Assembly: GCA_964016885.1 (NCBI GenBank) | Contig: OZ024740.1 | Span: 418,872,001 to 418,936,000 of the forward strand | Source: Eledone cirrhosa | Lineage: Eukaryota | Direction: 5' to 3' | DNA length: 64,000 nt | Shown here: positions 2,274 through 63,190 of the stretch, piece after piece | Layout of the letters: each line of letters starts with the position of its first letter | How positions within the stretch are numbered: position 1 is the first letter of the stretch | Notes under the pieces: model-generated | What the model was told of the DNA's origin: nothing | Database searches by the model: none | What the model saw: the letters and a program-made list of their open reading frames with translations, nothing else | Made by a program: the position numbers and the translations under genes

Positions 2274-5200
2274 TCCTTGAATCTCAGTCATTGATGTTGG
2301 TTAACTGGAAAGTCCGTTGGATTGAATATCAAGCCACTACCTGCAGCCTCAGATATTCAGGACGTATGGGAGGGTTCTTGCCGTTCCAAGCAAGCATGCC
2401 TTTTGAAGCGTTCCAAAAAGCGTGAAGGGGCCGATTTTCTTTAACCATCCCTGGAAACCTTTGGAGATAGTCCCCAGTGCGCCTATGACAATCGGGATCA
2501 CTTTGACTTCATGGCAGTTCCAAATCCTTTTCACCTCCCACTTTAGGTCCTGGTATCGGTTAATTTTCTCCCTCTCCTTCTCTTGCACTCTCGTGTCGAA
2601 CGGGCAGGCCACATCCACAATCAGGCACGATCTTTTTTCTTTGTCCACAACCACCAGGTCAGGTCTATTGTGCTCCAGTTTTTTGTCCGTCTGTATCCTA
2701 AAATCCCACAGCACCTTCACCTGACTGTTCTCCATCACCGCCTCTGGCCTATGCTCATACCATTTCTCAGAATGTGGTAGATTGTTTACTTTGCACAGGT
2801 GCCAGTGGATCACCCTGCCCATCACATCGTGTCTCCAGCCCTTATAGTGGGTCTGGGCTAGGTGTTTACACTCGGACACAATGTGAGCCACAGTCTCCTC
2901 TCTCTCTCCACAGATCCTGCACAGTGGGCTAGCCTCCTCCTTGTAGATATGGTGCTTCAACCACTTCGTTTTGAGGGCCTGCTCCTGCGCAGCCATTAGC
3001 ATTCCTTCTGTAGCCTTTTGAGGTCTCCTCTTCTCAACCAGTTCCATGTCTGTGGATCTCTAAATTCAGTTTTCTCAAAGAAGGTACTATGAAGGGATTT
3101 TCCCTTAAGGCTGCTCTTCCTCCTTGATGTTATTTCCTCCTTGGGTATCCCCTGGCCTACTGTCCCCTCCTTCAGTACAGCTCTGAGCATTGGCTCCTTA
3201 CTATAGGTCACGTATTTGTATAGGTTGTTTTTCTCCATCTGAACACAGTCCTCTATGCTGATAAGACCTCTTCCACCCTCAGATCTCCTTAGGTAGAGTC
3301 TATCGACATCACTCCTCTTGTGGAACATGTTGTAGATAGTCAATAGCTTCCTAGTCTTCCTATCCATTTCTTTTTGTTCAGCAACATTCCATCTCAGAAT
3401 TCCCGCACTGTACCTAATAATAGACACAGCTCGGGAATTTACTGCGCTTATGGCATTTCTGCTGTTCAGATGTGACTTCAATACGCTCCTTACTCTCCGA
3501 ATGTATTCAGTTCTTAACAATTCCTTCATTTTTTTGTTCTTTATGCCATCAGCCTCCAGAACGCCCAAATACTTGTATCCTTCCTCAGAGTCAATTTCCT
3601 TTATCATCTCACCTGTTGGTATCTGGATCCCGTTACTTCTGCTCAACCTACCCCTCCTCATCACAATGACTCCACATTTACCAATACCAAACTGCATACA
3701 TATATCACTGCTGAAAATACGGACAGTGTCAACAAGCACATCCAACTCCTTCTCACTTTTCCCGAAGAGCTTAAGATCGTCCATGAAGAGGAGGTGATTG
3801 ATGGTAAGCTCTCCCCTTCCCAACTTGTATCCTGCTCTCACTTTTCGCAGCATAATGGTCAAGGGCATCAGGGCAAGGACAAACAACAGAGGGGACAGGC
3901 TATCTCCCTGGAAGATACCTCTCTTGATCTTCACGCTTCCCAAGGATACTCCAGTTGATGTCAACTCTGTCTCCCAGGACCCCATACTCCTGCCCAGCAA
4001 CTGTCTGATGTTATCTGCCACCCTGAAGATCTCCAGGCTTTTGGTGATCCAGGAATGAGGCACCATGTCAAATGCCTTTCTGTAGTCTATCCATCCCATG
4101 GCAAGATCAGTGTGTCTCCTCCTGCAATTCCCCATTACCATCTTATCAATAAGCAACTGGTCCTTTGTACCACGTGACTTCTTTCGGCATCCTTTCTGTT
4201 CGTCCGGCAACAAGTTGTTTGTGTGGAGGTGATGGTAGATTTCCTCAGACACAATGCTCGTCAACAGTTTCCACATTACGGGCAGACATGTGATAGGTCT
4301 ATAGTTGGTAACATCATTACCCTTGATTCGGTCTTTCATTATCAGAACTGTGGTACCTTTTGTCAACCACTCTGGCACCTCACCCGACACCAAGCAGTCA
4401 TTGAACATGGCCGTCAGCTTCGGGTGGAGGGATGTTAAATGTTTAATCCAATACCCCTGCACACCATCTGGGCCTGGTGATTTCCAGTTGGTTAGTTTCT
4501 TGGCTTGCCCCTTAAGAGTTTCGACTGTGATACTCAAATCAGTCTGTTGCTGTGCCTGCTCACCGATCTCCCTCTGTACTGTCTCAATCCACCCTGCCTG
4601 GGCATTGTGTCTAACATCCTGCTCCCATATTCTTCTTCAGAATGTTTTAGCTTGTTCCGCCCCAGGGATCAAGTCGTTGCCTCTTTCTTTCCCCTCAAGC
4701 TGTCCAAACAGCATCTTCTGGTTGTTGTCGAACATGCGGTTCTGTTTATACTGACTGACTCTGTTCTCGTATCGCCTGATTTTGGCACTCTTTGCTACAA
4801 TGCGTTGCTTCAATTCCTCTATGATAATATTTAGCTTTTTACTCCTAGTTTTGTATTTTATTTCCAGTCTATTTTTAGTGCCTATGTTTTTTAGTGTCCC
4901 ATTCAGTAGTGACTCAAGCTTTCCTATGTCATTTCTCATTTCCCCGATTTGCCCACTCAGTCGCTTCTTCCACCACGGCTCTGCTCTTTCTTGTCTGTTG
5001 TTTCCTCTCGCTTTTATACCAAGTAGTTTCCTCACCGTATTTGCTGTTGCTTTGAGGATATTGTTGCACTGGTGAAGACTCCTCGCCTCAAGGTATGGGA
5101 TGACTTTGTTTACCTTAGCTGTTGTTTCTTTTAACTTTTTCCTGTCTACAAATCTTAGGTTCATAGGTCTCCCACTATCATTGTTCAACTCATCTACCAC

Positions 5201-13254: not shown

Positions 13255-14016
13255 TACATATTTATATATATGTATATCATCATCATCATCTTCATCATCA
13301 CCATTTAACATCCATTTTTCCTCGCTAGTATAAGTTAGAGGAGTTGCCCCATTTTGAAACAAGTCAGATCAGATGACCATGTTTTGTTCATACAGAACTG
13401 TTTCTGGCTAGGTTTCTACAGCAGGATGCCCTTCCAACCAGATTTGTAACATTGACTGGGTGCTTTTCATCGTGGCACCAAAATGACCAACTAACAGATT
13501 GGACTGGATTCCCTTTGTCGTGTCACCAACATGTTTACACATATATACATATACATATATATATATATATATATATGTAAAAATAACAAAAATAATAATG
13601 CTGATGTTACATATATCGTTTAATCATTATAATTATTTCCACGGTTCTCCATGCAATCGAGAAGTTCTTCATGCATTTGTTGTTGTTTTGACATATGTCT
13701 GCTGGGCACACGAGCAGAAGGACATGTGCTTTTTCCTGCCGGCAGCATATCACTAAATCGGTTTTCATCTGAGGATACCGTTCTCATAACAACAACAAAT
13801 GCATGAAGGAATAATTATAATGATTAAACGATTTCTGTAACAGCAGCATTATTATTTTTGTTATTTTTATAAAAATCTCAATCGTAACTAAAAACTACGA
13901 ATGTTGAGAGCTTTCTCCTGCTTGCTCCTGTTTTTACCAAAACAATCTCTTCGGAACATATGTATATATATATATATTGTCTGCCAATTTTAAATAATAT
14001 ATATATATATATATCA

Positions 14017-14760
14017 GAATGAAAGGCAGACTGTATGATGCGTGTATCCGAACAGCAATGTTGCATGGTAGTGAGACCTGGGCGCTGAAGGTGGAAGACT
14101 TACATAGATTAGAGAGAAACGAAGCCTGCATGCTCCGATGGATGTGTAACAGTAATATACGTGAACGACAAAGAATAAATGAATTGAGAGAGAGACTGAG
14201 CATAAGAGGAATCAAATGCTGTGTGCAGGAGAGGCGGTTGCGCTGGTATGGACATGTGATGCGTATGAAGGATGACAGCTGCATAAAAAGGTGCAGAGCA
14301 CTAGAAGTCGATGGAAACCGTGGAGTGGGGAGACCCAAGATGACCTGGGATGAGGTGATAAAAGCCGACCTCACCCAATTACACCTCTCAAAGGCAATGA
14401 CACACGACCGTGACCTCTGGCGTCACGCAGTAATACAAAGTACCCAACCTCCCATGGGTACAAGCTGAAGCATATAGACAACATTCCCCCACACCCCCCA
14501 CCGCATGGTGGTCGTGGAGGTGCCACGGCAAAGAAGCACTCAGCCCACACTGTAAAGTGGACGTGTAGGCGCCACGAAAAAGCACCCAGCACTCACTGTA
14601 AATGAGGTTGGTGTTAGGAAGGGCATCCAGCTGTAGAAATCAAGCCAAATCAGTTCCTGTATGAGCAAGGCATGGTCAGCCGACCAGACACTGCACACAA
14701 CAGGACAACCCGTCTAACCCATGCTGGCGTGAAAGAACGGACGTAAAACGGTGATGATGA
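14017..14760 (+). mobile_element. RTE LINE 3' fragment
   Basis: ORF 14019..14468 (MLHGSETW, RRLRWYGHVMR, GRPKMTW), 3'UTR and (GAT)n tail; lies between (TA)n tracts. Confidence 0.9.
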
Positions 14761-14995
14761 TATATATATATATAAATGGAATTTATCTGTGTCATATTTA
14801 CATGACAGCAACATGAATCAATTTGCCTGAGTTAGTTCAATGAAGACCCAATGATACATTAAATTAATTCATTGTTTGAGAGGGATAATTAGTTATTCAA
14901 CTTTGAAAGGGTCACAAACGGGAGACAATGAAAACATGTGAACCTTGTACAGAAGATAACAACAATAAAATCCTAGGAATAAATATATTTACCTA

Positions 14996-15269: not shown

Positions 15270-15502
15270 TGTGTGTGTGTGTGTGTGACAGCTTACACCT
15301 ATGCAGGATTAGCTGGCCCCCTCTAAGGTATATCTCGTTGGAGGTGTCTTGGGTCCTATCATCTCATTTCTACAGCTGAGTAAACTGGAGCAACGTGAAA
15401 TAAAGTGTCTTGCTCAAGGAAACAACACATCACAAAGTCCGAGAATTGAACTCACAATCTTTCGATTGCAAGCCCAATGCTCTAACCACTAAGCCATGTG
15501 CT
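15270..15502 (-). mobile_element. tRNA-derived CORE-like SINE
   Basis: Reverse complement of the family head at 37887; a similar copy lies at about 40825-41075. Confidence 0.65.
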
Positions 15503-16285: not shown

Positions 16286-17490
16286 TTAGCAGGTATTTGT
16301 CCCATAAATTGGAAACAAACCTGTTGGCATTCATGTGATGTCACGTGGCCTAGTTGAAGCTAGTCCTTCTAGCATGTTCTATGCAATAGTGTTTGGTCTG
16401 AGTGGATAAAAATATTTATATTCAAACTTCAAGTACTCAACTAGTTTTAGGAAGAAATCCATATGTAGGAATGAATATATTAATTGAATATATTGATGTT
16501 GTAGTTGCACGATAGCAGCACAAGTCAATATATATATTAAATATAAATATACATACATACTTACATATACACACACATATTAATATATATGTGTGTGCGT
16601 GTGTGTGAACTAATATAATTTACCTTATGTATATATGTGTACATATATGTATATATGTATGTGTGTGTGTATTAAATGTATTTGGTTAATGCCACCTACG
16701 TTTCAATTTAGAGTTTCAACATCCTTTATGTTTCATTTGGGTTGCAAAATAAGATGAAAAATAATATGATTCCAATGAAATTCGAGATGGTTTCATAATA
16801 AGCCTACTTCATTGGCTGACCAAAGCCATGTTTGGGTTGTGCATAAATTAAGATATGAGTCAGCAACAAATTTGATGAAATATGAAGGTATGGACAGAGG
16901 GATGAATCATGGTTAAAAGGTTACTAATAAAGTAGTTTGTAGGAAGTAATTATAGAGGGTTACGTTCAACATTAAGGTGTAGACCTTATTGCTTTTGTTG
17001 TTGTTGTTTCTCTTCTAGAAACTCTTATGAGGACTAACTATTGTCAACACAGACCTCTATCAGTTCCCTCAGACACAAATTATCTTTCAGGATATTCTGG
17101 CAGGAACTAAAACCTTTTAACTCATTAAGCACCAGCCTGCCCGAGGCTGCCTCTGTTAAAGTGCTCAAATTTAAATTTAACTTTTAGACTAAAATCTAAT
17201 TAATACATAACAAGTTAAATATTTGTCTTTTCTTATTAAATTAAAAGTTAGATATTTCATTAGAACACTCATAATTGTTAATTATTTTGATAATTAAAGC
17301 ACAAAGGCTGTACATTCATGTTAAAATATGGTCATGGAAGTCTTAAGAAGAATCCTAAAAGGTTTCCTATCTGACAAAACAACATTGAGTGTAACCTTTA
17401 CTACCAACCTTACTATGTTTTAGGGAACAATAACTTATGATTTTCTCTGTATATCACTGCTAAAGCATGCCTACCCACCAGCTGCCTCTC

Positions 17491-18560
17491 ATGTCCCACA
17501 TACTCACATCCTTCTCACTAGTCCCTTATGTCCACACACTCACATCCTTCCCACTAGTCCCTCATGTCCACACACTCACATCCTTCCCACTAGTCCCTCA
17601 TGTCCACACACTCACATCCTTCCCACTAGTCCCTTATGTCCACACACTCACATCCTTCCCACTAGTCCCTCATGTCCACACACTCACATCCTTCCCACTA
17701 GTCCCTCATGTCCACACACTCACATCCTTCCCACTAGTCCCTTATGTCCACACACTCACATCCTTCCCACTAGTCCCTCATGTCCACACACTCACATCCT
17801 TCCCACTAGTCCCTCATGTCCACACACTCACATCCTTCCCACTAGTCCCTCATGTCCACACACTCACATCCTTCCCACTAGTCCCTCATGTCCACACACT
17901 CACATCCTTCCCACTAGTCCCTCATGTCCACACACTCACATCCTTCCCACTAGTCCCTCATGTCCACACACTCACATCCTTCCCACTAGTCCCTTATGTC
18001 CACACACTCACATCCTTCCCACTAGTCCCTCATGTCCACATACTCACATCCTTCTCACTAGTCCCTCATGTCCACACACTCACATCCTTCCCACTAGTCC
18101 CTTATGTCCACACACTCACATCCTTCCCACTAGTCCCTCATGTCCACACACTCACATCCTTCCCACTAGTCCCTCATGTCCACACACTCACATCCTTCCC
18201 ACTAGTCCCTCATGTCCACACACTCACATCCTTCCCACTAGTCCCTCATGTCCACACACTCACATCCTTCCCACTAGTCCCTCATGTCCACACACTCACA
18301 TCCTTCCCACTAGTCCCTCATGTCCACACTCATATCCTTCCCACTAGTCCCTTATGTCCACACACTCACATCCTTCCCACTAGTCCCTTATGTCTACACA
18401 CTCATATCCTTCCCACCAGCTGCCTCTCATGTCCCACAGACTCACATCCTTCCCACTAGTCCCTCATGTCCACACACTCATATCCTTCCCACTAGCTCCC
18501 CCTCATCTTCCACACACTCATATCCTTCCCACAAACCCCCTCATGTCCCACACACTCATA
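17491..18560. repeat. 36-bp minisatellite, about 29 copies
   Basis: Unit TCCACACACTCACATCCTTCCCACTAGTCCCTCATG; degenerate at both edges. Confidence 0.95.
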
Positions 18561-18665
18561 TCCTTTAATGATCCTTAGCTGCAACACCCAAGTTCTTACT
18601 TATGCAATATCTTTTACAAATCTCCTTTAAACTCCTAAACAGTTAGTTGCCAAAAGTCTGTTTAA

Positions 18666-20004: not shown

Positions 20005-20495
20005 AAGTTTGGACCTGAAATTTTGACACTAAAATTTTTTTTAGTTTTTTACACTAAAAATGTGCACCTGAAATTTTTCGAACACCAAAAATGTGAACCT
20101 GAAGTTTTTTTTTACACCAAAACTGGGGAACTGAAGTTGTTTTGACACTAAAAATGTGGACCTGAAATTGTTTTGACACCAGCAATGTGAGCCTGAAATT
20201 GTTTTGACACTAAAAATGTGGACCTGAAATTGTTTTGACACCAGAAATGTGAGCCTGAAATTGTTTTGACACTAAAAATGTGGACCTGAAATTGTTTTGA
20301 CACCAGAAATGTGAGCCTGAAATTGTTTTGACACTAAAAATGTGGACCTGAAATTGTTTTGACACCAGAAATGTGAGCCTGAAATTGTTTTGACACTAAA
20401 AATGTGGACCTGAAATTGTTTTGACACCAGAAATGTGAGCCTGAAATTGTTTTGACACTAAAAACGTGGACCTGAAATTGTTTTGACACCAGAAA
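20005..20495. repeat. 31-bp minisatellite with 62-bp dimer structure
   Basis: Alternating AAAATGTGGACCTGAAATTGTTTTGACACC and AGAAATGTGAGCCTGAAATTGTTTTGACACTA. Confidence 0.95.
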
Positions 20496-21209
20496 TAGGC
20501 CACAAAGAAGAAAAGTTTGAGAAACACTGAGTTAAAGCCACACAGGGTTAAGGGTTGCACTGTAGGGTAAACATGGATAAAAATGCCACAACAACCATGA
20601 CTGGAATATTTTTGATAATCAATCTGTTGAATGAAGGTTGACCCCCCCCCCCCTCCCCAGGGGTTAACTAATACAACAACAACAATTACTATGATTACAA
20701 CAGCATGACATTATCATGTTACTGTTATTGTTGCCATTACTACAGCATCTGCTTTTTACAGCTTTTCACATAACAATTGTTATTGTTGCTTTTGTTGTTG
20801 CTGTTTGGTGCAGATGTTGCTACTGCACATATTGTTGATTTCTTGCCTTCAGTGCAGTGCAGCAGTGTTGTTGTTGTAATTGCTTTACTATGAGTTCTTC
20901 TTGCTAATGTTTCTATTTTGCTGCAGCTGTAATAACTGCAACCAACTCCACTGCTTCTGTAGCTGTTATTCTTGCAAATGCTAAGCACATATGCACCAAT
21001 GCAACTATCTTATCTCTTCCCCCTCCTACACCCACTCCTCCCACTCTTCCTCCTCCTACACCCACTCCTCAGCCCCCTCCCCCTCCTCACTGCCATCTTC
21101 TTAGCTAACACTACAGGGAATAAACATGTTGTATTAGCAAATCCTGATAGAGAAATGTTCAAGGACTTCTCTGTAAAAGCTGCAGAAGAAACCCACAATG
21201 ACAAAAACT

Positions 21210-27160: not shown

Positions 27161-27319
27161 GTAAGTATATATTATATATTATTAACTTTTAACAGCTGTG
27201 CAGACTCAGTTGACTGAGAATAAAACATTGATTAGGGTGCCTCAATTTGAAAAACCATCACCAATCATCTCATGTTAATTATAAATGATAGAAACATCTT
27301 CTGGATGCACACAAAAGGA

Positions 27320-29374
27320 AACAGATTAAAATGGAACCTAAAACACTAAAATGGAACCTAAAACAGCCTAAAATGGAACCTAAAACAAACTATGATGGAA
27401 CCTAAAACAGCCTAAAATGGGACCTAAAACAGACTAAAATGGAACCTAAAACAGCCTAAAATGGAACCTAAAACAGACTACGATGGAACCTAAAACAGAC
27501 TAAAATGGAACCTAAAACAGACTAAAATGGAACCTAAAACAGATTAAAATGGAACCTAAAACAGACTAAAATAGAACCTAATACAGACTACAATGGAACC
27601 TAAATCAGATTAAAATGGAACCAAAAACAGCCTAAAATGGAACCTAAAACAGACTACAATGGAACCTAAAACTGACTAAAATAGAACCTAAAACAGACTA
27701 TGATGGAACCTAAAACAGATTAAAATGGAACCTAAAACAGACTACAATGGAAGCTAAAACTGACTAAAATAGAACCTAAAACAGACTATGATGGAACCTA
27801 AAACAGATTAAAATGGAACCTAAAACAGACTACAATGGAACCTAAAACTGACTAAAATAGAACCTAAAACAGATTATGATGGAACCTAAAACAGATTAAA
27901 ATGGAACCTAAAACAGACTACAATGGAAGCTAAAACTGACTAAAATAGAACCTAAAACAGACTATGATAGAACCTAAAACAGATTAAAATGGAACCTAAA
28001 ACAGACTACAATGGAACCTAAAACTGACTAAAATAGAACCTAAAACAGATTATGATGGAACCTAAAACAGATTAAAATGGAACCTAAAACAGACTACAAT
28101 GGAACCTAAAACTGACTAAAATAGAACCTAAAACAGACTATGATGGAACCTAAAACAGATTAAAATGGAACCTAAAACAGACTAAAACAGAACCTAAAAC
28201 AGATTAAAATAGAACCTAAAACAGACTATGAACCTAAAACAGATTAAAATGGAACCTAAAACAGACTACAATGGAAGCTAAAACTGACTAAAATAGAACC
28301 TAAAACAGATTATGATGGAACCTAAAACAGATTAAAATGGAACCTAAAACAGCCTAAAATGGAACCTAAAACAGACTACGATGGAACCTAAAACAGACTA
28401 AAATGGAACCTAAAACAGACTAAAATGGAACCTAAAACAGATTAAAATGGAACTTAAAACAGACTAAAATAGAACCTAATACAGACTACAATGGAACCTA
28501 AATCAGATTAAAATGGAACCAAAAACAGCCTAAAATGGAACCTAAAACAGACTACAATGGAACCTAAAACTGACTAAAATAGAACCTAAAACAGACTATG
28601 ATGGAACCTAAAACAGATTAAAATGGAACCTAAAACAGACTACAATGGAAGCTAAAACTGACTAAAATAGAACCTAAAACAGACTATGATGGAACCTAAA
28701 ACAGATTAAAATGGAACCTAAAACAGACTACAATGGAACCTAAAACTGACTAAAATAGAACCTAAAACAGATTATGATGGAACCTAAAACAGATTAAAAT
28801 GGAACCTAAAACAGACTACAATGGAAGCTAAAACTGACTAAAATAGAACCTAAAACAGACTATGATAGAACCTAAAACAGATTAAAATGGAACCTAAAAC
28901 AGACTACAATGGAACCTAAAACTGACTAAAATAGAACCTAAAACAGATTATGATGGAACCTAAAACAGATTAAAATGGAACCTAAAACAGACTACAATGG
29001 AACCTAAAACTGACTAAAATAGAACCTAAAACAGACTATGATGGAACCTAAAACAGATTAAAATGGAACCTAAAACAGACTAAAACAGAACCTAAAACAG
29101 ATTAAAATAGAACCTAAAACAGACTATGAACTTAAAACAGATTAAAATGGAACCTAAAACAGACTAAAACAGAACCTAAAACAGATTAAAATGGAACCTA
29201 AAACAGACTACAATGGAACCTAAACTGACTAAAATGGAACCTAAAACAGACTATGATGGAACCTAAAACAGATTAAAATGGAACCTAAAATAAACTACAA
29301 TGGAACCTAAAGCAGACTAAAATGGAACCTAAAACAGACTAAAACAGAACCTAAAACAGATTAAAATGGAACCT
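27320..29374. repeat. 22-bp satellite (about 93 monomers) with higher-order structure
   Basis: Unit AAAATGGAACCTAAAACAGACT; 4-monomer variant cycle; 898-bp block duplication. Confidence 0.95.
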
Positions 29375-37886: not shown

Positions 37887-38205
37887 GGCACATGGTTTAG
37901 TGATTAGAGCATTGGGCTTGTAATCGAAAGGTTGTGAGTTCAATTCTCAGACTGAGTGATGTATTGTTTCCTTGAGCAAGACACTTTATTTCACATTGCT
38001 CCAGTTTACTCAGCTAATGAGATGATAGGACTGGGGCCCCTATCATTCCACTGCAAAGTGGTCGTGGAGATGCCATGGCAAAAAAGCACCCAGCACTCAC
38101 TGTAAATGAGGTTGGTGTTAGGAAGGGCATCCAGCTGTAGAAATCAAGCCAGAATCAGTTCCCATCCCACCCTTGCAAGCAGGGAAAAGCGAACGTAAAA
38201 TGATA
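37887..38205 (+). mobile_element. tRNA-headed CORE-like SINE ending in the RTE 3' tail
   Basis: GGCACATGGTTTAGTGATTAGAGC..GTGAGTTCAATTC..CCTTGAGCAAGACACTTT, then GGTGTTAGGAAGGGCATCCAGCTGTAGAAATC; reverse copy at 58336-58644. Confidence 0.7.
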
Positions 38206-50100: not shown

Positions 50101-51195
50101 TAGGTAGCAGCAAGTGTCCACAGAATACTAGTTCATTCCATTGCACAGATGGTTCTATAGAAATAGTGGACACCTTCCGTTACCTGGGTGACAAAATCAG
50201 CAGTGGTGGAGGGTGTTCCGAAAGTACAGTAGCTAGAGTCAGAACGGGATGGAAAAAGTTCAGAGAGCTTATACCACTATTGGCCGCTAAAGGCTTCTCA
50301 CTAAAAATGAAAGGCAGGCTGTATGATGCCTGCATATGAACAGCAATGTTACATGGCAGTGAGACCTGGGCATTGTGTGCAGGGGATATACGCAGACTGG
50401 AGAGGAACAAAGCTTGCATGCTCCGCTGGATGTGTAATAGTAATATACATGAACGGCAAAGCATAAACGAACTAAGGGAGAAATTAGGAATAAGAGGGAT
50501 CAGATGCTGTTTACTCGAGAGAAGACTACGTTGGTACGGTCAAGGGAGAAATTAGGAATAAGAGGGATCAGATGCTGTTTACTCGAGAGAAGACTACGTT
50601 GGTACGGTCACGTGATGCGCATGAAAGACGACAGCTGTATAAAAAAGTGCAGGGCGATAAAAATAGATGGTAACCACGGCGTAGGCAGACCCAGAAAAAC
50701 CTGGGATGACGTGCTAAACTCCGACCTCACACACTTACACCTCTCCAAGATAATGTCACGGGACCGAGATCTTACGCAATACACAGTAATACGGAAGACC
50801 CGCCTTACCTAAGTACAAAGCGAAACCTACAGTCAGTAGGCATCTCTAACAAAAATACACCCCGGCCCCACTACCCCCACCCCATCCACACCACCCCTTC
50901 CAATGTAAAGTTATGTTGGTACCACAGCATCCAGTCAGAAACAAATGAGGGCGTGTAGATGTCACAACAAAAAAACACAGTCCACGCTGTAATGTGGCCG
51001 TGTAGGTAACACAGTAAAAACCTCCCAGTCCACACTGTAAACGTGGTTGGTGTTAGGAAGGGCATCCAGCCATAGAAAACCCACCAGACAGTCCTATGCG
51101 AGCAAGACAACCAATCTTGCCTCAAGTGGGAAAATTTCCGTTCAAGCCCATGCTAGCGGGGAAGATGGACGTTAAACGATGATGATGATGATGAT
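47148..51195 (+). mobile_element. Near-full-length RTE-clade LINE (APE endonuclease plus RT), inactivated
   Basis: APE motifs CIQETRW, AGDLNGHV, QIDYIL and SQHRLIVSD; RT motifs FVDLEKAFDRVP, GVHQGSVL and LYADDL; 3'UTR and (GAT)n tail; 5' boundary uncertain. Confidence 0.9.
47555..50812 (+). pseudogene. RTE ORF with in-frame stops (47921, 48779, 50337), a frameshift near 48860 and a 68-bp duplication
   Basis: Read-through gives GVGIM*AEKWVD, EDY*VARREAR and ACI*TAML (RTAML in other copies). Confidence 0.85.
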
Positions 51196-51218
51196 CATCA
51201 TCATCATCATCATCATCT

Positions 51219-51780
51219 ATGTCAGGTCACCAGTTGGTGCTACTGGTAACATGTATCCCAGTACAACCTGTCTCATGGTCGGGTTGTTGGCGACTAAACT
51301 GGCAACTCCACCAAGGTTTCTTTGGACATCCTGCAGGACTAAAAACAAAACCTGTCAAAGACAAAGGAACTCTTAAGAGTCAATGGCCATCCAAAATCAC
51401 TGGGAGAGATGACCCCTTAGCCTTTGTCAAGGCAGAATTCTAGGAGAAGGAAAACTCTGATATAACACCTGCAACCCTGATGGTATCCAATGATGTTGAC
51501 TTGTTCTTCTTTTTGGTAAATATCATCTTGGTTAAGAGAGTGGGACTGGCTTTGTGCAGTGCCTTTGCTCACTATAAAAGCTTCACGGCACAGGTATTGC
51601 TTTATATCTGGAGATCTCTCTTCACTTGTCGTCACATGGTACCATGGGCCCAGCACTATGTGTCAGTAATTGTCACAAGTGTAGTGTTTGTGCCAGAATT
51701 TTCAAGTCGCTGGCTGGACTAAAAAGTCACACTCGTTCAGCGCATCAGTAGCCGTACTTGAAAACGAGTTGGCAGCCACC
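51219..51780 (+). mobile_element. Non-autonomous bipartite RTE-derived element
   Basis: RTE 5'UTR-like motif TAGGAGAAGGAAAACTCTGA; 3' remnant encodes a C2H2 finger HKCSVCARIFKSLAGLKSHTRSAH (51674-51751) like RTE-BovB C-termini; ends in (AT)n. Confidence 0.7.
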
Positions 51781-52098
51781 ATATATATATATATGCAAAG
51801 AAATACCTATGATGGCTAGTAGACAACTGATGAAGGATATTCCCAACTTCTATTTCTAATTCTTCATTATTATACTTAATTGCAACAACACAGCTCGCCA
51901 TTTTTTATTTATATATATATATATATAACACAGTAAAGAGAGAAGAACACATATATATATATGTGTGTGTGTGTGTTCTTCTCTCTTTACTGTGTTATAA
52001 AGGACTCAGAATTTTTTCTTTGAGCTAATTTTATTATAAGGGAGTATTGTGAGTTTTTAACTGAACATAGCGAAGTTCAATGTATGTGTGTGTATGTA

Positions 52099-52187
<89 letters not shown>

Positions 52188-52228
52188 GGGAACAAAGAAT
52201 CAGTATTGCATCATGTACATATTTAATT

Positions 52229-52322
52229 ACATATTACATATGTTTCACTGTCGATCAGCTCGAGGACTGATCAATTAATGTTCGATCCTGAGACTCTGGA
52301 ATCGGGAGCTCTTCAGATATGT
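52229..52322 (-). ncRNA. Type I hammerhead ribozyme motif with expanded stem II
   Basis: ACAUAU-CUGAAGA-GCU..AGU-GAAA-CAUAUG-UA-AUAUGU. Confidence 0.7.
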
Positions 52323-52685
52323 GTTTTCACATGTAGTTGCACGTCCAAATGATTGGAGACATATATATATATATATCATCATCATCATCATCATTTTATG
52401 TCCACTTTTATGTGATTCCTCCTAAACTCATATATACATCTTTGGGTGTATATATGTATATATCTATAATTAACTCTAAAATAACTCTACAATAACTTTT
52501 CAACCGATAATAACAAACCCATTAAAAAATTTAAATAAGGATTTAAAATTTATCAAGCGTCTAAACTTAACGGCTTTTTTCAGGTTTAATGTTCTCCTCA
52601 TTAGCATATATCCCTTAAGTGTTGAACCTTTCAATTCACTATCTTCACTGAACTTAAACCATTAAGTTCATATGAAGATATGTCA

Positions 52686-52740
52686 TTTATCTGACGAAAG
52701 CGTACTTAAATATTGGTATCCTTGAAATACGTATAATAAA
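52686..52740 (+). ncRNA. Minimal type I hammerhead ribozyme motif
   Basis: UUUAU-CUGACGA-AAG..CUU-GAAA-UACGUA-UA-AUAAA. Confidence 0.7.
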
Positions 52741-53045
52741 ATAAATATGGTTTTATAAATATATTTTCCATTTATTAATATTATTAATATTAATGATACT
52801 CCAGATAAATTTGTAGAGTGCTTCTAATCTGTTGTAAAATTAACTTTGTTGAATAATCAACAAACCATATAACTCATTGTTTATATATATACAGTTCCTG
52901 TATGAGCAAGGCATGGTCAGACGACCAGACACTACCCACAACAGGACAACCCGTCTAACCCATGCTAGCATGGAAGAACTGACGTAAAACGGTGATGATT
53001 ATGATGATGATGATGATGATATAATGAATGAGAGGGCCCTGGATT

Positions 53046-53094
<49 letters not shown>

Positions 53095-53100
53095 TATATA

Positions 53101-53439
53101 CAATCCAATCTAGGGCCCTCTCATTCATTTTGGTGTAATCCTGGTTGACCTCCACTGTTTTATGTCTGGTTTTCGTCATGATAGGGATGTAGGTGCACTC
53201 ACCATGCTTGGCCAGTCATAGGTTGGGAAAGCTATTTAGCTATTTAGCCCACAGTTGCGGTGCATGGTTGTTGAGTGGATGGAGTTTATCCACCTATTAA
53301 CAGCTCTTGGTTTGTGCTGCTGGAGTTCCACTTACTCTGGTCTGGTGGAGGAGTTTGTTTAGTTGCTGACCACTCGACCATGAAGCAGGTTATATTGGGT
53401 TACATGGTACCAGTAGCAGGCATAAGCCTGACTTGACAT
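53101..53439 (-). mobile_element. Short element sharing the 5' structured head of the RTE-derived elements
   Basis: First about 95 nt are homologous to 51219-51312; the rest differs; flanked by TA-rich microsatellites. Confidence 0.55.
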
Positions 53440-53474
53440 ACATATATACATATATTCATATACATGTGTGTATG

Positions 53475-53510
<36 letters not shown>

Positions 53511-53571
53511 TGTATTTATGTATGTATGTATACATTTATATATCTATATATATGTATATATACATACATTA

Positions 53572-53605
<34 letters not shown>

Positions 53606-53616
53606 CGCACGCACAC

Positions 53617-53648
<32 letters not shown>

Positions 53649-53649
53649 T

Positions 53650-54057
53650 GAAACATGGGCAGTGACTGCAGAGGACATGTGTTGGTTGAAGAGAAAAGAA
53701 GCAGCCATGCTTCAATGGATGCGCAACGTAAATGTGAGAGAAAGGCAAAACTTGGATGAACTGAGAAAGAAACTGGGTCTAAGAGGAATCTGAGGTGGTG
53801 TGCAGGAGAGAAGACTGTGTTGGTACGGACATGTGTTGCACATGGATGTTGATTGCTGTGTGAAGAAGTGCCAGGAAATCTCAGTGGAAGAAAGTTGCAG
53901 TGGAGGTTGACCTGGGCAGATGTGGTGAATGCTGAACATAAATCACTGAGATGGCAGAAGAGATGACAAATGAATGAAACAAATGGAGAGATGCTGAGTT
54001 GCAAAGGACCCATCCAACCCATGCAAGCATGGAAAAATAGATGTAAAAACAATGATG

Positions 54058-54058
<1 letters not shown>
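53650..54058 (+). mobile_element. Diverged RTE 3' fragment
   Basis: ETWAVTAEDM..MLQWMRNV..LGLRGI, RRLCWYGHV, and the shared 3' tail. Confidence 0.75.
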
Positions 54059-54108
<50 letters not shown>

Positions 54109-54218
54109 CCATTGAAATGGCTTGCCAAATACAAGCTGAAACCAGTAGGTTTCATGATCGGCTTTTTACCTTCCTTTCATCATCATCATCATCATCATCA
54201 TTATATATATATATATAT

Positions 54219-54265
<47 letters not shown>

Positions 54266-54842
54266 AAAAGAGTCAGGACTCCGACGGCTGAGTCGACAGC
54301 TAGATCTGAACTCAGACCTAGCTGTCGAAACCGCTAGAGCTCACTCGTCAGGGTCCTCACTCTTTTCCTATTACCCACTCTACTACCCTAAGTATTGAGT
54401 ACTCTGGTGCATTATGGTCTCCCTGGTATCTTACCACACCTTCTTTGTTATATATATATATACATATATATATACATATCTATGATTATAAATGTACTCA
54501 CATAGAATCATACAATATGTCTAATAACATTAATTGAATCAGCACTCAGTACATATAAATATGACACATGATAATGCTGACTCTAAGTTAAGTTGAAGTC
54601 ACTCCAAACTTTTCCTTGTGTCTATATTTTCTTGTTGTATGACATTTGCACAATGGTTAGAGAGACAGGTGGAGATTGGTGAGCCAGACTATGGCATCAT
54701 TTGTAGTAGAATGGATAGCCTCTAGGCTGCCGGGAAAATGTCTGAGGGGACAATTCCGAACAATATGCACTCCGTGTAACTGAAAAGGCTTGGAAAAGTT
54801 TTAAATGTAATAAAATGAGCTGTCTGTATAGAAGCACTAACA

Positions 54843-54988
54843 ATATTAAGTATTGTATGCACAATGTTAAGTATTGTATGCACAATGTTAAGTATTGTAT
54901 GCACAATGTTAAGTATTGTATGCACAATGTTAAGTATTGTATGCACAATGTTAAGTATTGTATGCACAATGTTAAGTATTGTATGCAC
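54843..54988. repeat. 21-bp minisatellite, about 7 copies
   Basis: Unit TGTTAAGTATTGTATGCACAA. Confidence 0.95.
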
Positions 54989-55379
54989 AACAACTCTAGG
55001 TACCATTTTTGGACAGAATCATACTGGAGATGAGATAGGGATCTTAAGAAGCTTAGTCTTGGTAATAAACCCTAACCAGCAGCTGAGAGGTGACCCACAT
55101 CTAATGAAGATCCTGTTTATGTTGTGAGGAGGGATGCCCAAGCCAAGGAATATTTCATTATGAACTGTTAAACAATAAACAATCATAGCTGAGGTTTATT
55201 GTCAACAACTTTGCTATTTGTAAACAGGTGTTTTGTTGTGGAGAGTTGTGTCCTGAACAGAAAAAGGGATATTCTCTATCCCTGCACCCCCACCCAGATA
55301 CACACACATGTATGTGTGTCTATTTGTATACCATGACTCATACACTGTTCACTTTCCTGATATGTGTACATTATTTTAT

Positions 55380-56573
55380 ATAATAATAATAATAATGAAA
55401 TATTGTGTACAGTGCTCAGGTGCACTACAACTCATCAAAAAGTGTATGTATAGTACATAGGGTAATGTACAAATGTCAGGAAAATGATCAGTGCATGAGT
55501 CATGATATACACATGTGTGCATGTGTATGGAAAGGGTACATCAGGTGTAGTTTTGGTGTATTTCGGGAATCATGAGTGTCTTAAAGGATGCAGTGTCTCG
55601 GCAGCTAACAACTGACGCAGGCAGTTTGTTCCATGCTACAGCAAGTCTAAGCGTGAAAAAATGTTTCCGAAAGTCATGGGAGCTGTGCTGTTTTCTGATT
55701 TTGTAGGCATGTCCACGTGTGTTAGACACATGGAGATCAAAAAGGTGCTCAGGGTTGTTGTTGGCGAGATGGTTAATAACTTTGTGGGTGTTTACCAAGT
55801 CCATTGCCAGACGTTGGAGCTTCAATGAATCCATGCCCAGGGAAGCAAGGCGTTCAGAGTATGGTAGGTGTCTGATGGAGGGTATGCGCTTGGTTGCATG
55901 TCTCTGAACAGTTTCCAGGCGGTCAATGTTCTGAGCAAGATAGGGCTTCCAAACTGATGATGTGAATTCCAAGTGTGGTCGTACCATAGCTGTATACAGT
56001 TTTAAATAGATGGCTGGAGAGCGGCTAACAAAGGTCTTGCTGAGTGATGCCAAGACATCCTCGGCCTTCTTGACAATCTTAGAGACATGCAGTGTCCAAC
56101 GCAAATCGCTGCTGACAGTAATGCCCAGGTCACGTTCACAAGAGGACTTCTTGATATCAGTGTTGTGGAGGGAGTATGTGGACGCTGGATTTTTCCTCCA
56201 AAAATGCATGGTGGTACACTTGTCCACAGCCAGCTTCAGTTGCCAGTCTGTGCTCCATTGCTGCATTGTGTCCAGGTCTGATTGTAGGAAAGTGTTGTAG
56301 ATTTCAGGATCAGTCCTTTTGATTTCAAGGTACAGCTTGATGTCATCTGCATATTTCAGTACCGTGGCATTCTGTAAGTTGGCATCTATGTCATTAATAT
56401 ATGCCACAAACAAAAGGGGACCAAGAACAGATCCCTGTGGTACACCAGATGACATCTCATATGGTGAAGAATGCTGTCCTAGAACTGTGACTACCTCTTT
56501 TCGGCTGAGAATGAAGGATTTCAACCAGTCGAAAAGATCATCCCTCACACCCATTGCAGAGAGTTTTGCCATA
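55380..56573 (-). mobile_element. CR1-clade LINE, 5'-truncated
   Basis: ORF 55541..56572: SGVPQGSVLGPLLF, KYADDIKLY, ERDLGITV, VRPHLEF, WNKLP; 3'UTR ends in (TTA)n. Confidence 0.9.
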
Positions 56574-56587
56574 AGTATGTACTATAC

Positions 56588-56737
56588 TTTTCCAGCATAG
56601 TTACGTCCCTTTACAGTCTGAGTTCAAATCCCGCCGAGGTTAACTTTGCCTTTCATCCTTACGGGGTCGATAAAATAAAGTACCAGTAATGTACTAGGTA
56701 ATTGCTGGCCTTGTGCCTAAAGTAGAAACAATTATTT
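56588..56737 (+). mobile_element. 5'-truncated Nin/Deu-like SINE with 12-bp TSD
   Basis: TSD TATGTACTATAC at 56576-56587 and 56738-56749. Confidence 0.85.
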
Positions 56738-56819
56738 TATGTACTATACATGCACCTTTGATGAGTTGTAGTGCACCTGAGCACTGTACACAATAATTTT
56801 CCTTATTATTTTTATCAGA

Positions 56820-57342
56820 ATAATACCCATCCTCATACTGGAAATTGGTCCCTCCACCATATACTCCTGACCTTGCTCTTTCTGAATATCATTTCTTAGG
56901 GATTTTACAAAATAAATATTTATAGATTTAGACTAATATCATGAGGAGAGGTAAAAAAAAAAATGAGTTTGTCGTTTTTTCCATCAAAGCCTAAATAATC
57001 TTATAAATACTTCTTCTTCTCATCCCATCCTCATATCTAAGGGTCGGGGGTCATGGACTTATGGACCAGCAATCTCCATCTTTTCCTGTCTCTTGCCACT
57101 GCCGTACATTCCGCCAGATTCCTTCCTGTCCATTCCTTAATATCATCTGCCCACCTCCTTTTCTGCTGTCCCCTGGCCCTTTTCTCCTGACTACCCACAT
57201 TTATAAATACAGCATCTATATAATTGTTGACAGATGGAATAAAGTTTCCAAAGGAAATTAAAAATATAATTATGATTAAATACATCCATAAATACCATGA
57301 TATTGATTATAAAAATAAATGTTCAAACTGGACAACCCTATA
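56820..57342 (+). mobile_element. Decayed mariner transposase 3' remnant interrupted by an RTE 3' fragment
   Basis: PPYTPDLALSEYHFL (YSPDL-like motif) and FINTAS/IVDRWNKV C-terminal-like remnants; RTE piece 57011-57200 on the minus strand (RRWADDIKEW) with TSD TTATAAATAC. Confidence 0.65.
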
Positions 57343-57376
57343 ATCACAGCCTAAAATATATACACACACATATATA

Positions 57377-57455
<79 letters not shown>

Positions 57456-57711
57456 CGGCAATGAATTAGTTTTGCGAGGTTTTTGATATGAAATCGTGTG
57501 TCGAAACAAATATTGTTATACTTGGGGAGGGTCATATTTGTGTAATAATATTGCCAGAATTAATAACAGAACACATTCACTGTTTGATTGGTTTTCGCTT
57601 CTGTGTCTTTTATATTGGTTAATTTAATTATTCGGTCCTCAATGTTACCATTGACTGACCAACGGTAAAAAATACAGTTATAATATAGACACAAACACAT
57701 ATATATAGTCT

Positions 57712-57753
57712 AACAAAGTTCTTTCGTTGCACATCTGCAACATCGTCAGTGGT
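57712..57753 (-). ncRNA. Degenerate minimal hammerhead motif
   Basis: ACCA-CUGACGA-U-GUUGCA-GAUG-UGCAAC-GAAA-GAAC-UU-UGUU. Confidence 0.5.
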
Positions 57754-57882
57754 GCTATTATGTTTCTTCCTGTTGTATTGTATGCCTACGCCATCTTTAT
57801 TTAGTCTGTTTATTTAACAGTGAGTGTGTTCTGTTATTAATTCTGGCAATATTATTACACAAATATGACCCTCCCCAAGTAT

Positions 57883-57928
<46 letters not shown>

Positions 57929-58646
57929 ATAAATACATATATATACACACATAAATACATATATATATATACAAGAAGACAAGAAGGTAGTACAGCATAA
58001 TCGAAGCTCTGGTTGTGAGCAAGCTAACGGATGTTGTCGGGAAGTGCAGCCAAAAGCACTCAATAAGGAATTATACCTCAGAGTTGTAACATTACGTTTA
58101 GACAGCTATGCAAATTGAAGCCAGCGACCATAAATATATATGTATGTATCTCCAGGGAGTGTAACTTGGAGTTACTGTAGGTTCACCCGGATGAGCACTC
58201 AATGTTTAGGTTCACTTCAGTGTCGAGGTGTAGAGCTAGACAGAGTGTGGAAGCACTCCATTAACATTATAAGGGGTCTGATGAGCCGCGGATTACAGAA
58301 TAGGGTCAAATCGATACAGATCAAACTATGAGCTATTCCCTGCTTGCAAGGGTGGGACGGGAACTGATTCTGGCTTGATTTCTACAGCTGGATGCCCTTC
58401 CTAACACCAATCTCATTTTCAGTGAGTGCTGGGTGCTTCTTTGCCGTGGCACCTCCACGACCACTTTGCAGTGGAATGATATGGACCCCAGTCTCTATCA
58501 TCTCATTTCTACAGCTGAGTAAACTGGAGCAATGTTAAATAAAGTGTCTTGCTCAAGGAAACAACACATCACCCGGTCTGAGAATTGAACTCACAACCTT
58601 TCGATTGCAAGGCCAATGCTCTAACCACTAAGCCATGTGCCTCCAT

Positions 58647-58753
<107 letters not shown>

Positions 58754-58874
58754 GTATCAAGATAAGCAGAACAAGTAAAATTCAACCAATTTTTCAAAAT
58801 AAATCAAAATTAATATACAATTAAAATTAATCAAAATTAAAAAATATAATATAAATATTTACCTATTCAAATGG

Positions 58875-58952
58875 CCCTAACTGTACAGTTTCACGTTGCA
58901 AAACATTAGATATCACGTGGATATTAATGGAAAAGCAAAGATCATCAGAGAA
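58875..58952 (-). ncRNA. Degenerate hammerhead motif
   Basis: UUCU-CUGAUGA-..UUGC..GCAA..-GAAA-CUGUACAG-UU-AGGG. Confidence 0.45.
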
Positions 58953-59066
58953 GCATTTTCCTATCCTAGGGTTAAAAACCCCAGGAACGACAAAATATAT
59001 GACCTCACTCCAACTAATACAGGTCTGAAAGGTCGTGAAAGTGACCCATAAATACGTTGGTGTATA

Positions 59067-59136
<70 letters not shown>

Positions 59137-59325
59137 AAAAAAAGGAAAAGAATGCCTTCACTTGTAATTCTAAATAATTTGATTTAATTTTATATTATAA
59201 TATTATGAGTTGGTAGATCTAGTTCTACCAACTAGACTAGATCTACCAACTCATAATATTATAATATAAAATTAAATCAAATTATTTAGAATTACAAGTG
59301 AAGTCATTCTTTTCCCTTTTTTCAA

Positions 59326-59357
<32 letters not shown>

Positions 59358-59550
59358 CTATCTATTTATGTTCATACACAGAACAAAATCACTACCTAAG
59401 GTTTCAAGGTCCAAGTCTAATAATGACATTATCTCCAGAATGTAAGAGGGATCAAAATTGTAATCTAATCTTCAGGTGCTTATACAACATTATATACATA
59501 AAAAGTTTCCAATTCTACCCTGCCCGTCCCCTCAATCTTTGTTTCTTGTT

Positions 59551-59586
59551 TCTTCTGATGAAGGACTACCGTCTGAAACGTTAAGG
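59551..59586 (+). ncRNA. Minimal hammerhead motif
   Basis: UCUU-CUGAUGA-A-GGAC-UACC-GUCU-GAAA-CG-UU-AAGG. Confidence 0.55.
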
Positions 59587-59680
59587 CCCTCTTCCTTCTA
59601 TTTGAAGCATTAAACTAATATATTCATTCCATAAACTGTACCATTTGTGTTGTTATTTCTGTTATTTTAGTTTACCTTTT

Positions 59681-59783
<103 letters not shown>

Positions 59784-59870
59784 CTCTAGGGTTCTTATAA
59801 ATATTTATCCTTATTGAGCCCTCTTTGGATTTTAGTCTTCAAATTTATTATTATTACTATATATATATAT

Positions 59871-60475
59871 GGTGGCTGCCAACTCGTTTTCGAGTACGGC
59901 CACTACTTTATATCCATGTAGGAGAACCCCTACCGAAGCACTGAACGAGTGTGACTTTTTAGTCCAGCCAGCGACTTGAAACCTCTGGTACAAACACTAC
60001 ACTTGTGACAATTATTGACACATAGTGCTGGGCCCATGGTACCATGTGACGACAAGTGCAGAGAGATCTCCAGATATAAAGCAATACCTGTGCCGTGAAG
60101 CTTTTATAGTGAGCAAAGGCACTGCACAAAGCCAGTCCCACTCTCTTAACCAAGATGATATTTACCAAAAAGAAGAACAAGTCAACATCATTGGATACCA
60201 TCAGAGTTGCAGGTGTTATATCAGAGTTTTCCTTCTCCTAGAATTCTGCCTTGACAAAGGCTAAGGGGTCATCTCTCCGGGTGATTTTGGATGGCCATTT
60301 ACTCTTAAGAGCTCCTTTGCTCTTTGACAGGTTTTGTTTTTAGTCCTGCAGGATGTCCAAAGTCACCCTCCTCACCAAGAAACCTTGGTGGGGTTGCCAG
60401 TTTAGTCGCCAATGACACGACCATGAGACAGGTTGTACTGGGATACATGTTACCAGTAGCACCAACTGGTGACCT

Positions 60476-60480
<5 letters not shown>
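59871..60480 (-). mobile_element. Second copy of the bipartite RTE-derived element
   Basis: Reverse complement of 51219-51780 with small indels; (TA)n on both sides. Confidence 0.8.
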
Positions 60481-60564
<84 letters not shown>

Positions 60565-60611
60565 GTACATATATATGTATATGTATATCTATATATATGT
60601 ATATATGTATA

Positions 60612-60703
<92 letters not shown>

Positions 60704-62322: not shown

Positions 62323-63190
62323 TCATCATCATCATCATCATCATCACCGTTTTACGTCCGTTCTTCCACGCTAGCATGGGTTAGACGGGTTGTCCTGTTG
62401 TGGGCAGTGTCTGGTCGGCTGACCATGCCTTGCTCATACAGGAACTGATCTGGCTTGATTTCTACAGCTGGATGCCCTTCCTAACACCAACCTCATTTAC
62501 AGTGAGTGCTGGGTGCTTTTTCGTGGCGCCTACACGTCCACTTTACAGTGTGGGCTGGGTGCTTTTTTGCCGTGGCACCTCCACGACCACCTTGCGGTGG
62601 GGGGGGGGGAGGCATATTGTTTATATGCTTCAGCATGTACCCATGGGAGGTCGGGTACCCTGTATTACTGCGTGACGCCAGAAGTCACGGTCGTGTGTCA
62701 TTGACTTTGAGAGGTGTAGTTGGGTAAGGTCGGCTTTTATCACCTCATCCCAAGTCATCTTGGGTCTCCCCACTCCGCGGTTTCCATCAACTTCTAGTGC
62801 TCTGCACCTTTTTATGCAGCTGTCATCCTTCATACGCATCACATGTCCATACCAGCGTAACCGCCTCTCCTGCACGCAGCATTTGATTCCTCTTATGCTC
62901 AGTCTCTCTCTCAATTCATTTATGCTTTGTCGTTCACGTATATTACTGTTACACATCCATCGGAGCATGCAGGCTTCGTTTCTCTCTAATCTACGTAAGT
63001 CTTCCACCTTCAGCGCCCAGGTCTCACTACCATGCAACATCGCTGTTCGGATACACGCATCATACAGTCTGCCTTTCATTCTGAGGGAGAAGCCTTTTGC
63101 AGCTAGCAGTGGTAGTAGTTCCCTAAACTTCTTCCATCCCGTTCTTACCCTAGTTATTGTACTTTCTGAGCACCCACCTCCGTTGCTAAT
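62323..63190 (-). mobile_element. RTE LINE 3' fragment
   Basis: ORF 62630..63079 plus 3'UTR and (GAT)n tail. Confidence 0.9.

Follow-up and report, generated by a model that had tools for sequence, protein, structure and literature searches.

HDV-like ribozymes were reportedly found in RTE and other elements in a paper of 2011. Ribozymes sit at the 5' terminus of R2 and Perere-3 elements (PMC8501958), and for the R2 5' ribozyme a role in shielding from 5'-3' decay has been proposed (PMC11331408, PMC12222951). The exoribonuclease-resistant RNAs (xrRNAs) of subclass 1a have a P1-P2-P3 junction, a PK1 of 1-2 bp, a PK2 of 2-7 bp and a U-A-U base triple (PMC8374639, PMC8571300, PMC7527734, PMC12081666), with a single C between P2 and P3 as the defining feature (PMC8374639, PMC7527734), and in mosquito-borne flaviviruses Xrn1 halts 5-6 nt before P1 (PMC5760640, PMC3968743). 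A 2021 review describes xrRNAs as characterised in viruses only, raises the question of eukaryotic genomes, and notes putative xrRNAs, as yet untested, among the viral fragments integrated in mosquitoes, a situation different from that of a retrotransposon head (PMC8374639). The table of a 2024 review still places xrRNAs under viruses (PMC11499389). No natural retrotransposon xrRNA was found in the literature searched, which included the accessible text of PMC12222951, PMC11499389 and PMC13034579 and few subscription papers.

The motif described here was identified in a 64,000-nt stretch of Eledone cirrhosa DNA (the window). It forms the 5' head that several RTE-clade retrotransposons have in common. 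Its predicted fold is that of a flavivirus-type (subclass 1a) xrRNA, and it is likely to make and protect the 5' end of the element by stalling a host 5'-3' exonuclease. The initial annotation of the window had placed a structured, pseudoknotted RNA without a canonical HDV fold exactly at the 5' terminus of RTE-derived elements, which is upheld, and its view that this RNA takes part in 5'-end processing is shared here as probable.

Copies in the window and host elements

Three copies are present in the window at the positions first assigned to them, each starting at the identical nucleotide next to a microsatellite, with motif base G3 at 51221 on the forward strand in copy 1 and at 60478 and 53437 on the reverse strand in copies 2 and 3, respectively. 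Copy 1 (51220..51780, forward strand) is a non-autonomous element of family A with private deletions, and copy 2 (59871..60479, reverse strand) is a member of the same family with the same head, the two being 89% identical across ~600 nt. Copy 3 (53101..53438, reverse strand) is a decayed member of the older family B (~340 nt), in the head of which pairs of P1 and P3 are broken. A tRNA-derived SINE was rejected because a tRNA-like head is absent: ARAGORN predicted 0 genes in 51100-60700, and no tRNA model matched at the positions of the copies.

Several other repeats were recorded in the window. Another abundant short repeat, with a GAT-type tail, occupies 51047-51218 and ~15 other places; it abuts the upstream side of copy 1 in the same orientation and also lies just past copy 3. 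The segments 14014-14761 and 62337-63084 form an inverted pair of 748 nt that is 96% complementary and represents a young dispersed repeat. Weak tRNA-model matches (25-29 bits) at 15436-15497, 58578-58635 and 37891-37954 are probably tRNA-derived repeat heads, and long minisatellites with 36-, 31/62- and 22-nt units are located at 17488-18565, 20046-20496 and 27319-29374, respectively.

Across the genome (3.0 Gb), the 31-nt core of the motif has 12,890 exact matches, compared with 0 for the reversed control. Two genome searches yielded 1,684 and 1,561 candidates at first look, and 40 from each search were scored. At least three LINE lineages of the RTE clade, together with short elements derived from them, have the head as their first conserved sequence, and the short derivatives lie mostly within microsatellites. 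Family A (~610 nt) consists of nt 1-434 and nt 3898-4077 of a 4.07-kb LINE (L294, L301) that opens with the same head and encodes an APE endonuclease, a reverse transcriptase (RT) and C2H2 fingers. As judged by this APE-RT-C2H2 layout and by sequence motifs, the parent LINE is taken to belong to the RTE clade. Family A shares both ends with the autonomous APE-RT element L301, as a non-autonomous RTE derivative does, and its layout of joined 5' and 3' LINE ends is presumably that of a bipartite derivative.

The full head is found at the start of family D in 16/30 loci and begins family F in 21/30 loci, and the core lies upstream in family G in 19/30 loci. As the RT pieces of families D and G are only 31% and 55% identical to that of the family A parent, a single head is common to distant lineages. 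In families G and F, a microsatellite-like remnant separates the head from the remainder of the element, as insertion of a LINE into a copy already carrying the head would predict. In families D and F, the motif occurs once more at an internal position (D2 and F2, respectively). These internal copies decay, a 9-nt deletion removing the 3' strand of P3 in most F copies and D2 being without a clean P1 or PK1. None of 7 matches pointed to a stand-alone family that starts with F2. If a LINE integrates downstream of a copy with the head, it would capture that head, and its own head, now internal, would decay, as F2 and D2 may have done.

Family A is also present in contigs of four other organisms, one of which has a variant with a longer P2 as well. 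Organism E has a high-depth variant, in a contig of 1,061 nt that aligns to window positions 51238-51301, in which P1 starts identically, P2 is longer and the sequence further downstream is different; this long-P2 variant is absent from the present genome. The family A ORF has 685 protein relatives, none of them in the viral collection. For the family D ORF, 18 metagenomic relatives, many of whose contigs may stop short of the 5' end, showed no head upstream, nor did a model built from retroelement copies only (R1) detect it on 80 loci of such relatives, where the contigs may likewise miss the 5' end. A search with a retroelement-type pattern gave two viral and four prokaryotic matches with a weak fold or none, which were judged to be due to chance.

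Three further observations concern the regions around the head. The family B head forms tandem arrays (G000:C2:220134358-220138377, L053, L055, L042 and G000:C2:401678379-401680919) with units of 57, 95-102 or ~107 nt in up to ~40 copies, which are satellites of the xrRNA-like motif. In families A, C, D and F, the head is followed by a second conserved 5' UTR block (window 51409-51460; L091:84-126; L092:7-55), which is also present in metagenomic relatives without the head. The internal 5' UTR of family G (L060:505-760) includes a long self-complementary run close to its beginning and matches no Rfam family at the cut-off.

Predicted fold, covariation and the match to viral xrRNAs

The shared motif and the differing first hairpins reported in the initial annotation are present in the sequence, as are the pairings of CAGGU with ACCUG, UACUGG with CCAGUA and the loop CAUG with CAUGG, and these three pairings correspond to P1, P3 and PK2 in a fold of the subclass 1a xrRNA type. 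In the predicted fold of copy 1 (all coordinates on the forward strand), U2 and G3 (51220..51221) form PK1 with A51265 and C51264, and U4 (51222) is the third base of the putative U-A-U triple with A51242-U51262. The 5' strand of P1 (51223..51227) pairs with 51266-51270 and is followed by the P2 hairpin (51228..51239), which is exchanged freely between families (12, 14 or 31 nt), and by the single C of J2/3 at 51240, the discriminating base of subclass 1a. P3 and its loop occupy 51241..51263, with 51241-51246 paired to 51258-51263 and the PK2 strand at 51250-51253 within L3 (51247-51257). The segment 51264..51270 comprises J3/1, the C and A of which are the PK1 partners, and the 3' strand of P1, and 51271..51279 comprises a 3-nt linker and the 3' strand of PK2 (51274-51277, pairing with CAUG of L3). 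A P4 hairpin with a conserved 8-nt loop is predicted at 51281..51308 by ViennaRNA from family majorities, with alignment A5 as further evidence. It is predicted for the family A and C majorities, and another pairing is predicted for B. A further hairpin 3' of P4 is partly lost in copy 1 owing to a 17-nt deletion.

The elements of this fold were compared with those of subclass 1a using a class 1a descriptor and an alignment (A2) of 10 chosen retroelement copies and two viral rows. The three-way junction of P1, P2 and P3 was recovered by both. The C of J2/3 is invariant in 12/12 rows, as are G3 and U4, and all three bases of the putative U-A-U triple are invariant. The P1 sequence is conserved and, by prediction, the P4 hairpin lies downstream. 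The G3-C pair of PK1 is present in 11/12 rows. Position 2-45 is U-A in 111/122 A copies and 28/29 C copies, A-U in 8/12 F2 copies without the deletion, and G.A in 36/41 parsed B copies (tandem-array units included), which leaves a PK1 of 1 bp in B. PK2 has 4 bp in A and 6 bp in B and is bulged in F2, and the distance between PK2 and J3/1 amounts to 10 nt (9 with one more PK2 pair), compared with 8 in the viral locus L173, a distance that bears on the ring of ~15 nt that subclass 1a xrRNAs form around the 5' end. In ViennaRNA, the junction of four intact copies lies 2.8-7.5 kcal/mol above the minimum, and for the viral controls the gap is 6.3-7.1 kcal/mol; as the minimum-energy fold misses the junction in two true xrRNAs too, the folding energy is not decisive.

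Copies were parsed into five variants (132 A, 66 B, 36 C, 6 F2 and 21 D2), with 47 unassigned. In A2, 92.9% of the model cells pair and nine pairs are changed on both sides, which was reached in 0/500 shuffles, a test inflated by the relatedness among rows. Registers slid along the same alignment pair in 23-44% of cells. The retroelement rows alone contain four double changes, namely at position 2-45 of PK1 (U-A to A-U, from F2), at one P3 pair (G-C to A-U, from D2) and at two PK2 pairs (also from D2), so that the genome variants covary at PK1, P3 and PK2 in two lineages only, both of them internal and decaying. The differences between copies 1 and 2 in the 9-nt loop are not covariation but private substitutions off a single family majority. 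Among 3,437 contigs of organism C, the variable sites listed are two bases of L3, two of the linker and one after PK2, all unpaired in the model, in a table that may omit differences and hence lends weak support.

Passive carriage of the head without present function, as a fragment captured from a flavivirus-like 3' UTR or as a look-alike, is most improbable. In its favour, most copies are dead, host genomes are known to contain flaviviral sequence (PMC8374639), and identity alone says little in families of recent common ancestry. Against a passive piece, P2, L3 and the linker have diverged between families while positions engaged in pairing or tertiary contacts were kept or changed pairwise, and the fold decays once it is no longer 5'-most, through the deletion in P3 in family F and the loss of P1 in D2.

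The match to viral xrRNAs was assessed with Rfam and with the descriptor. In focused Rfam scans, the top match of copy 1 was Flavivirus_SLIV (RF01415) at 25.9 bits (E 0.0098), below the gathering cut-off of 54.5 bits; the same family was the top match of a family B copy at 24.5 bits, and the F2 copy tested had no match. Searched genome-wide, Flavivirus_SLIV gave three matches, all of them this head, at 29-29.6 bits (E 6.6-9). The whole-window scan gave microsatellite-driven noise and the xrRNA match at E 3.7, and RF03547 (Flavi_xrRNA) had no match in the Rfam scans. In the window, the class 1a descriptor found copies 1 and 2 together with microsatellite noise and two lower-scoring matches, and its score for the 575-nt element was equalled in 0/3,000 dinucleotide shuffles.

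The comparison set consisted of viral stretches collected by a pattern admitting both forms, namely 80 out of 120. The descriptor picked 2/80 of these loci, both of which are flaviviral xrRNAs above the Rfam cut-offs, and missed a third flaviviral locus, L200. Copy 1 is identical to each of the two flaviviral xrRNAs in 17/23 core columns, and the six differing columns make up three compensatory pairs. Most of the 17 identities are imposed by the search pattern; the compensation is not. The R1 model ranked the same two xrRNAs first and second of the 80 loci (19.1 and 15.4 bits), scores equal to those of pattern-selected prokaryotic decoys (15-20 bits). Given that the Rfam cut-off is not reached and the context is not a flaviviral 3' UTR, the head is not ranked as a member of subclass 1a, and its resistance is putative. 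In its mode of action, the head most likely resembles a subclass 1a xrRNA.

Element starts and formation of the 5' end

G3, U4 and P1 are kept in 83/99 distinct copies picked by the core alone, and in these the common sequence fades to microsatellite three bases upstream. In family F, which has varied flanks, base -1 is T in 17/19 copies and base -2 is mixed; conservation thus begins at the first paired base. Among 93 two-ended family A copies, target duplications were callable in 28, ambiguous in 35 and absent in 30. In the 28 callable cases, the number of extra bases before G3 is 0 in 15, 3-5 in 12, 8 in one and 1-2 in none, the 12 cases at 3-5 bases comparing with ~3.7 expected from shuffled flank pairs. 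The 15 junctions at offset 0 are ambiguous, as all end in TAT or TGT and could hide a leader. In family B, six non-array calls among 23 rows gave an offset of 4 four times, 1 once and 7 once, and those at offset 4 include one unique duplication of 16 bp and one that is microsatellite-like. Target duplications at 16 loci of family D, 21 of family F and 15 further loci with the B pattern were uninformative. Where duplications resolve, 3-5 extra bases place the start of the insert 5-7 nt before P1, with most junctions being ambiguous. These upstream bases could alternatively be untemplated additions or reflect the transcription start.

The junctions bear on the self-cleaving ribozyme, a variant HDV-like one or one of a new class, that the initial annotation had proposed to cut near AU^GUC and free the element from host transcripts. 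Such a cut would leave none of the 3-5 nt that many insertions hold 5' of G3, and self-cleavage finds no support in the Rfam scans, whole-window or focused, which matched no ribozyme family. A scan of equal size does find a twister on a metagenome contig upstream of a related LINE ORF (L104:90-185; twister-P1, 43.6 bits, E 7e-9, below the cut-off), which indicates that related elements use different 5' modules. This twister and the ribozymes heading R2 and Perere-3 elements (PMC8501958) speak for a catalytic head, as does the fact that in 9/12 rows of A2 G3 could form the terminal pair of an extended P1. The HDV-style P1 extension and P3 are, however, no better than shuffles, being 79.5% paired, which was equalled by 57/500 shuffles, and the second HDV-style P1 pair is present in 1/12 rows. 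The CUAA thought to follow P4 instead lies in the loop of the predicted P4 hairpin and is missing from F2 and D2. An HDV double-pseudoknot descriptor, applied with no positive control, found 0/6 copies at strict spacing and 1/6 at loose spacing, the latter in a non-conserved match. Taken together, a self-cleaving ribozyme is very unlikely. Among described classes, an HDV-like ribozyme was rejected, as neither a 7-bp P1 at the first base nor a nested double pseudoknot with P2, P1.1 and a catalytic C in J4/2 was found, and a twister was rejected, as no twister model matched in the focused scan of copy 1.

The offsets are instead consistent with trimming by a host exonuclease up to an xrRNA-like head. 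Copies would be transcribed inside longer host or read-through RNAs, the leader of which Xrn1 or Xrn2 would degrade after decapping, cleavage or debranching. The enzyme would halt 5-6 nt before P1 and leave a stable uncapped RNA, and reverse transcription would copy the trimmed end, leaving a few bases upstream of G3 in the inserts, which fits the junctions.

A different origin of the 5' end is Pol II initiation from a promoter inside the head, in which case the fold would guard the RNA only after decapping or the conservation would be partly at the DNA level. Promoter capture would account equally well for a start fixed 5-7 nt ahead of P1 and for the capture of heads between LINE families, and the L1Tc 5' end is described as serving as both promoter and ribozyme. 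Nevertheless, initiation of this kind leaves unexplained the compensatory changes at PK1, P3 and PK2, as well as the onset of conservation at the first paired base and the match to the Xrn1 halt distance, and it is considered unlikely. A head that stalls a host exonuclease is the preferred explanation and is considered probable.

Comparison with known systems

The head is a concrete candidate of ~60 nt for the question of xrRNAs in eukaryotic genomes and, if it holds, would answer that question. It would also represent a route to retrotransposon 5' ends that requires neither a ribozyme nor a promoter, suggest that a lineage of RNA viruses and a mobile element of a host exchanged an RNA module, and offer a 5' shield of natural origin to RNA-templated gene insertion, the yield of which is limited by 5' stability (PMC11331408, PMC12222951).

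Among retrotransposons, the parent LINE resembles RTE-2_OV, a transcribed octopus LINE, in being of the RTE clade, in the APE-RT-zinc finger layout, in a length of ~4-4.5 kb and in a microsatellite tail (PMC9115989). Identity with RTE-2_OV was rejected, as the primers given in the accessible part of PMC9115989 match neither the parent LINE nor the genome, and that part describes no 5' structure for RTE-2_OV. Compared with other bipartite RTE derivatives, the layout of family A is ordinary and the structured head is the new part.

In its predicted fold, the head shares with subclass 1a xrRNAs the order and spacing of PK1, P1, P2, the C of J2/3, P3, L3, J3/1, the linker and PK2, followed by a hairpin, as well as the GUCAGG/CCUG sequence of P1, the bases of the putative U-A-U triple and the free length of P2. 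In addition, where target duplications resolve extra bases, the retroelement inserts start near the Xrn1 halt distance. It differs in having a P3 of 6 bp, other L3, PK2 and P4 sequences, U-A pairs where the two viral examples carry A-U or C-G, and a score less than half the Rfam cut-off. The context differs as well, flaviviral xrRNAs being located in the viral 3' UTR, where they yield sfRNA, whereas the head forms the 5' end of a nuclear retrotransposon, before the 5' UTR and ORF. On sequence grounds, the shared P1 favours common descent or capture over convergence, but the searches detected no relative beyond close organisms. There is an even chance that the head is a working cellular xrRNA derived from, or shared with, a flavivirus ancestor and constitutes, with exonuclease stalling besides internal promoters and ribozymes, a third route to non-LTR 5' ends, spreading as a swappable head between unrelated LINE lineages.

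The 5' ribozymes, HDV-like in R2 and L1Tc and twister variants in Perere-3, occupy the same position as the head and probably do the same job of defining and shielding an uncapped 5' end. An xrRNA would do so without catalysis. The head matches no catalytic fold, and its end would come from the host exonuclease; it would be a 5'-monophosphate located a few bases upstream of the structure, whereas a ribozyme leaves a 5'-OH.
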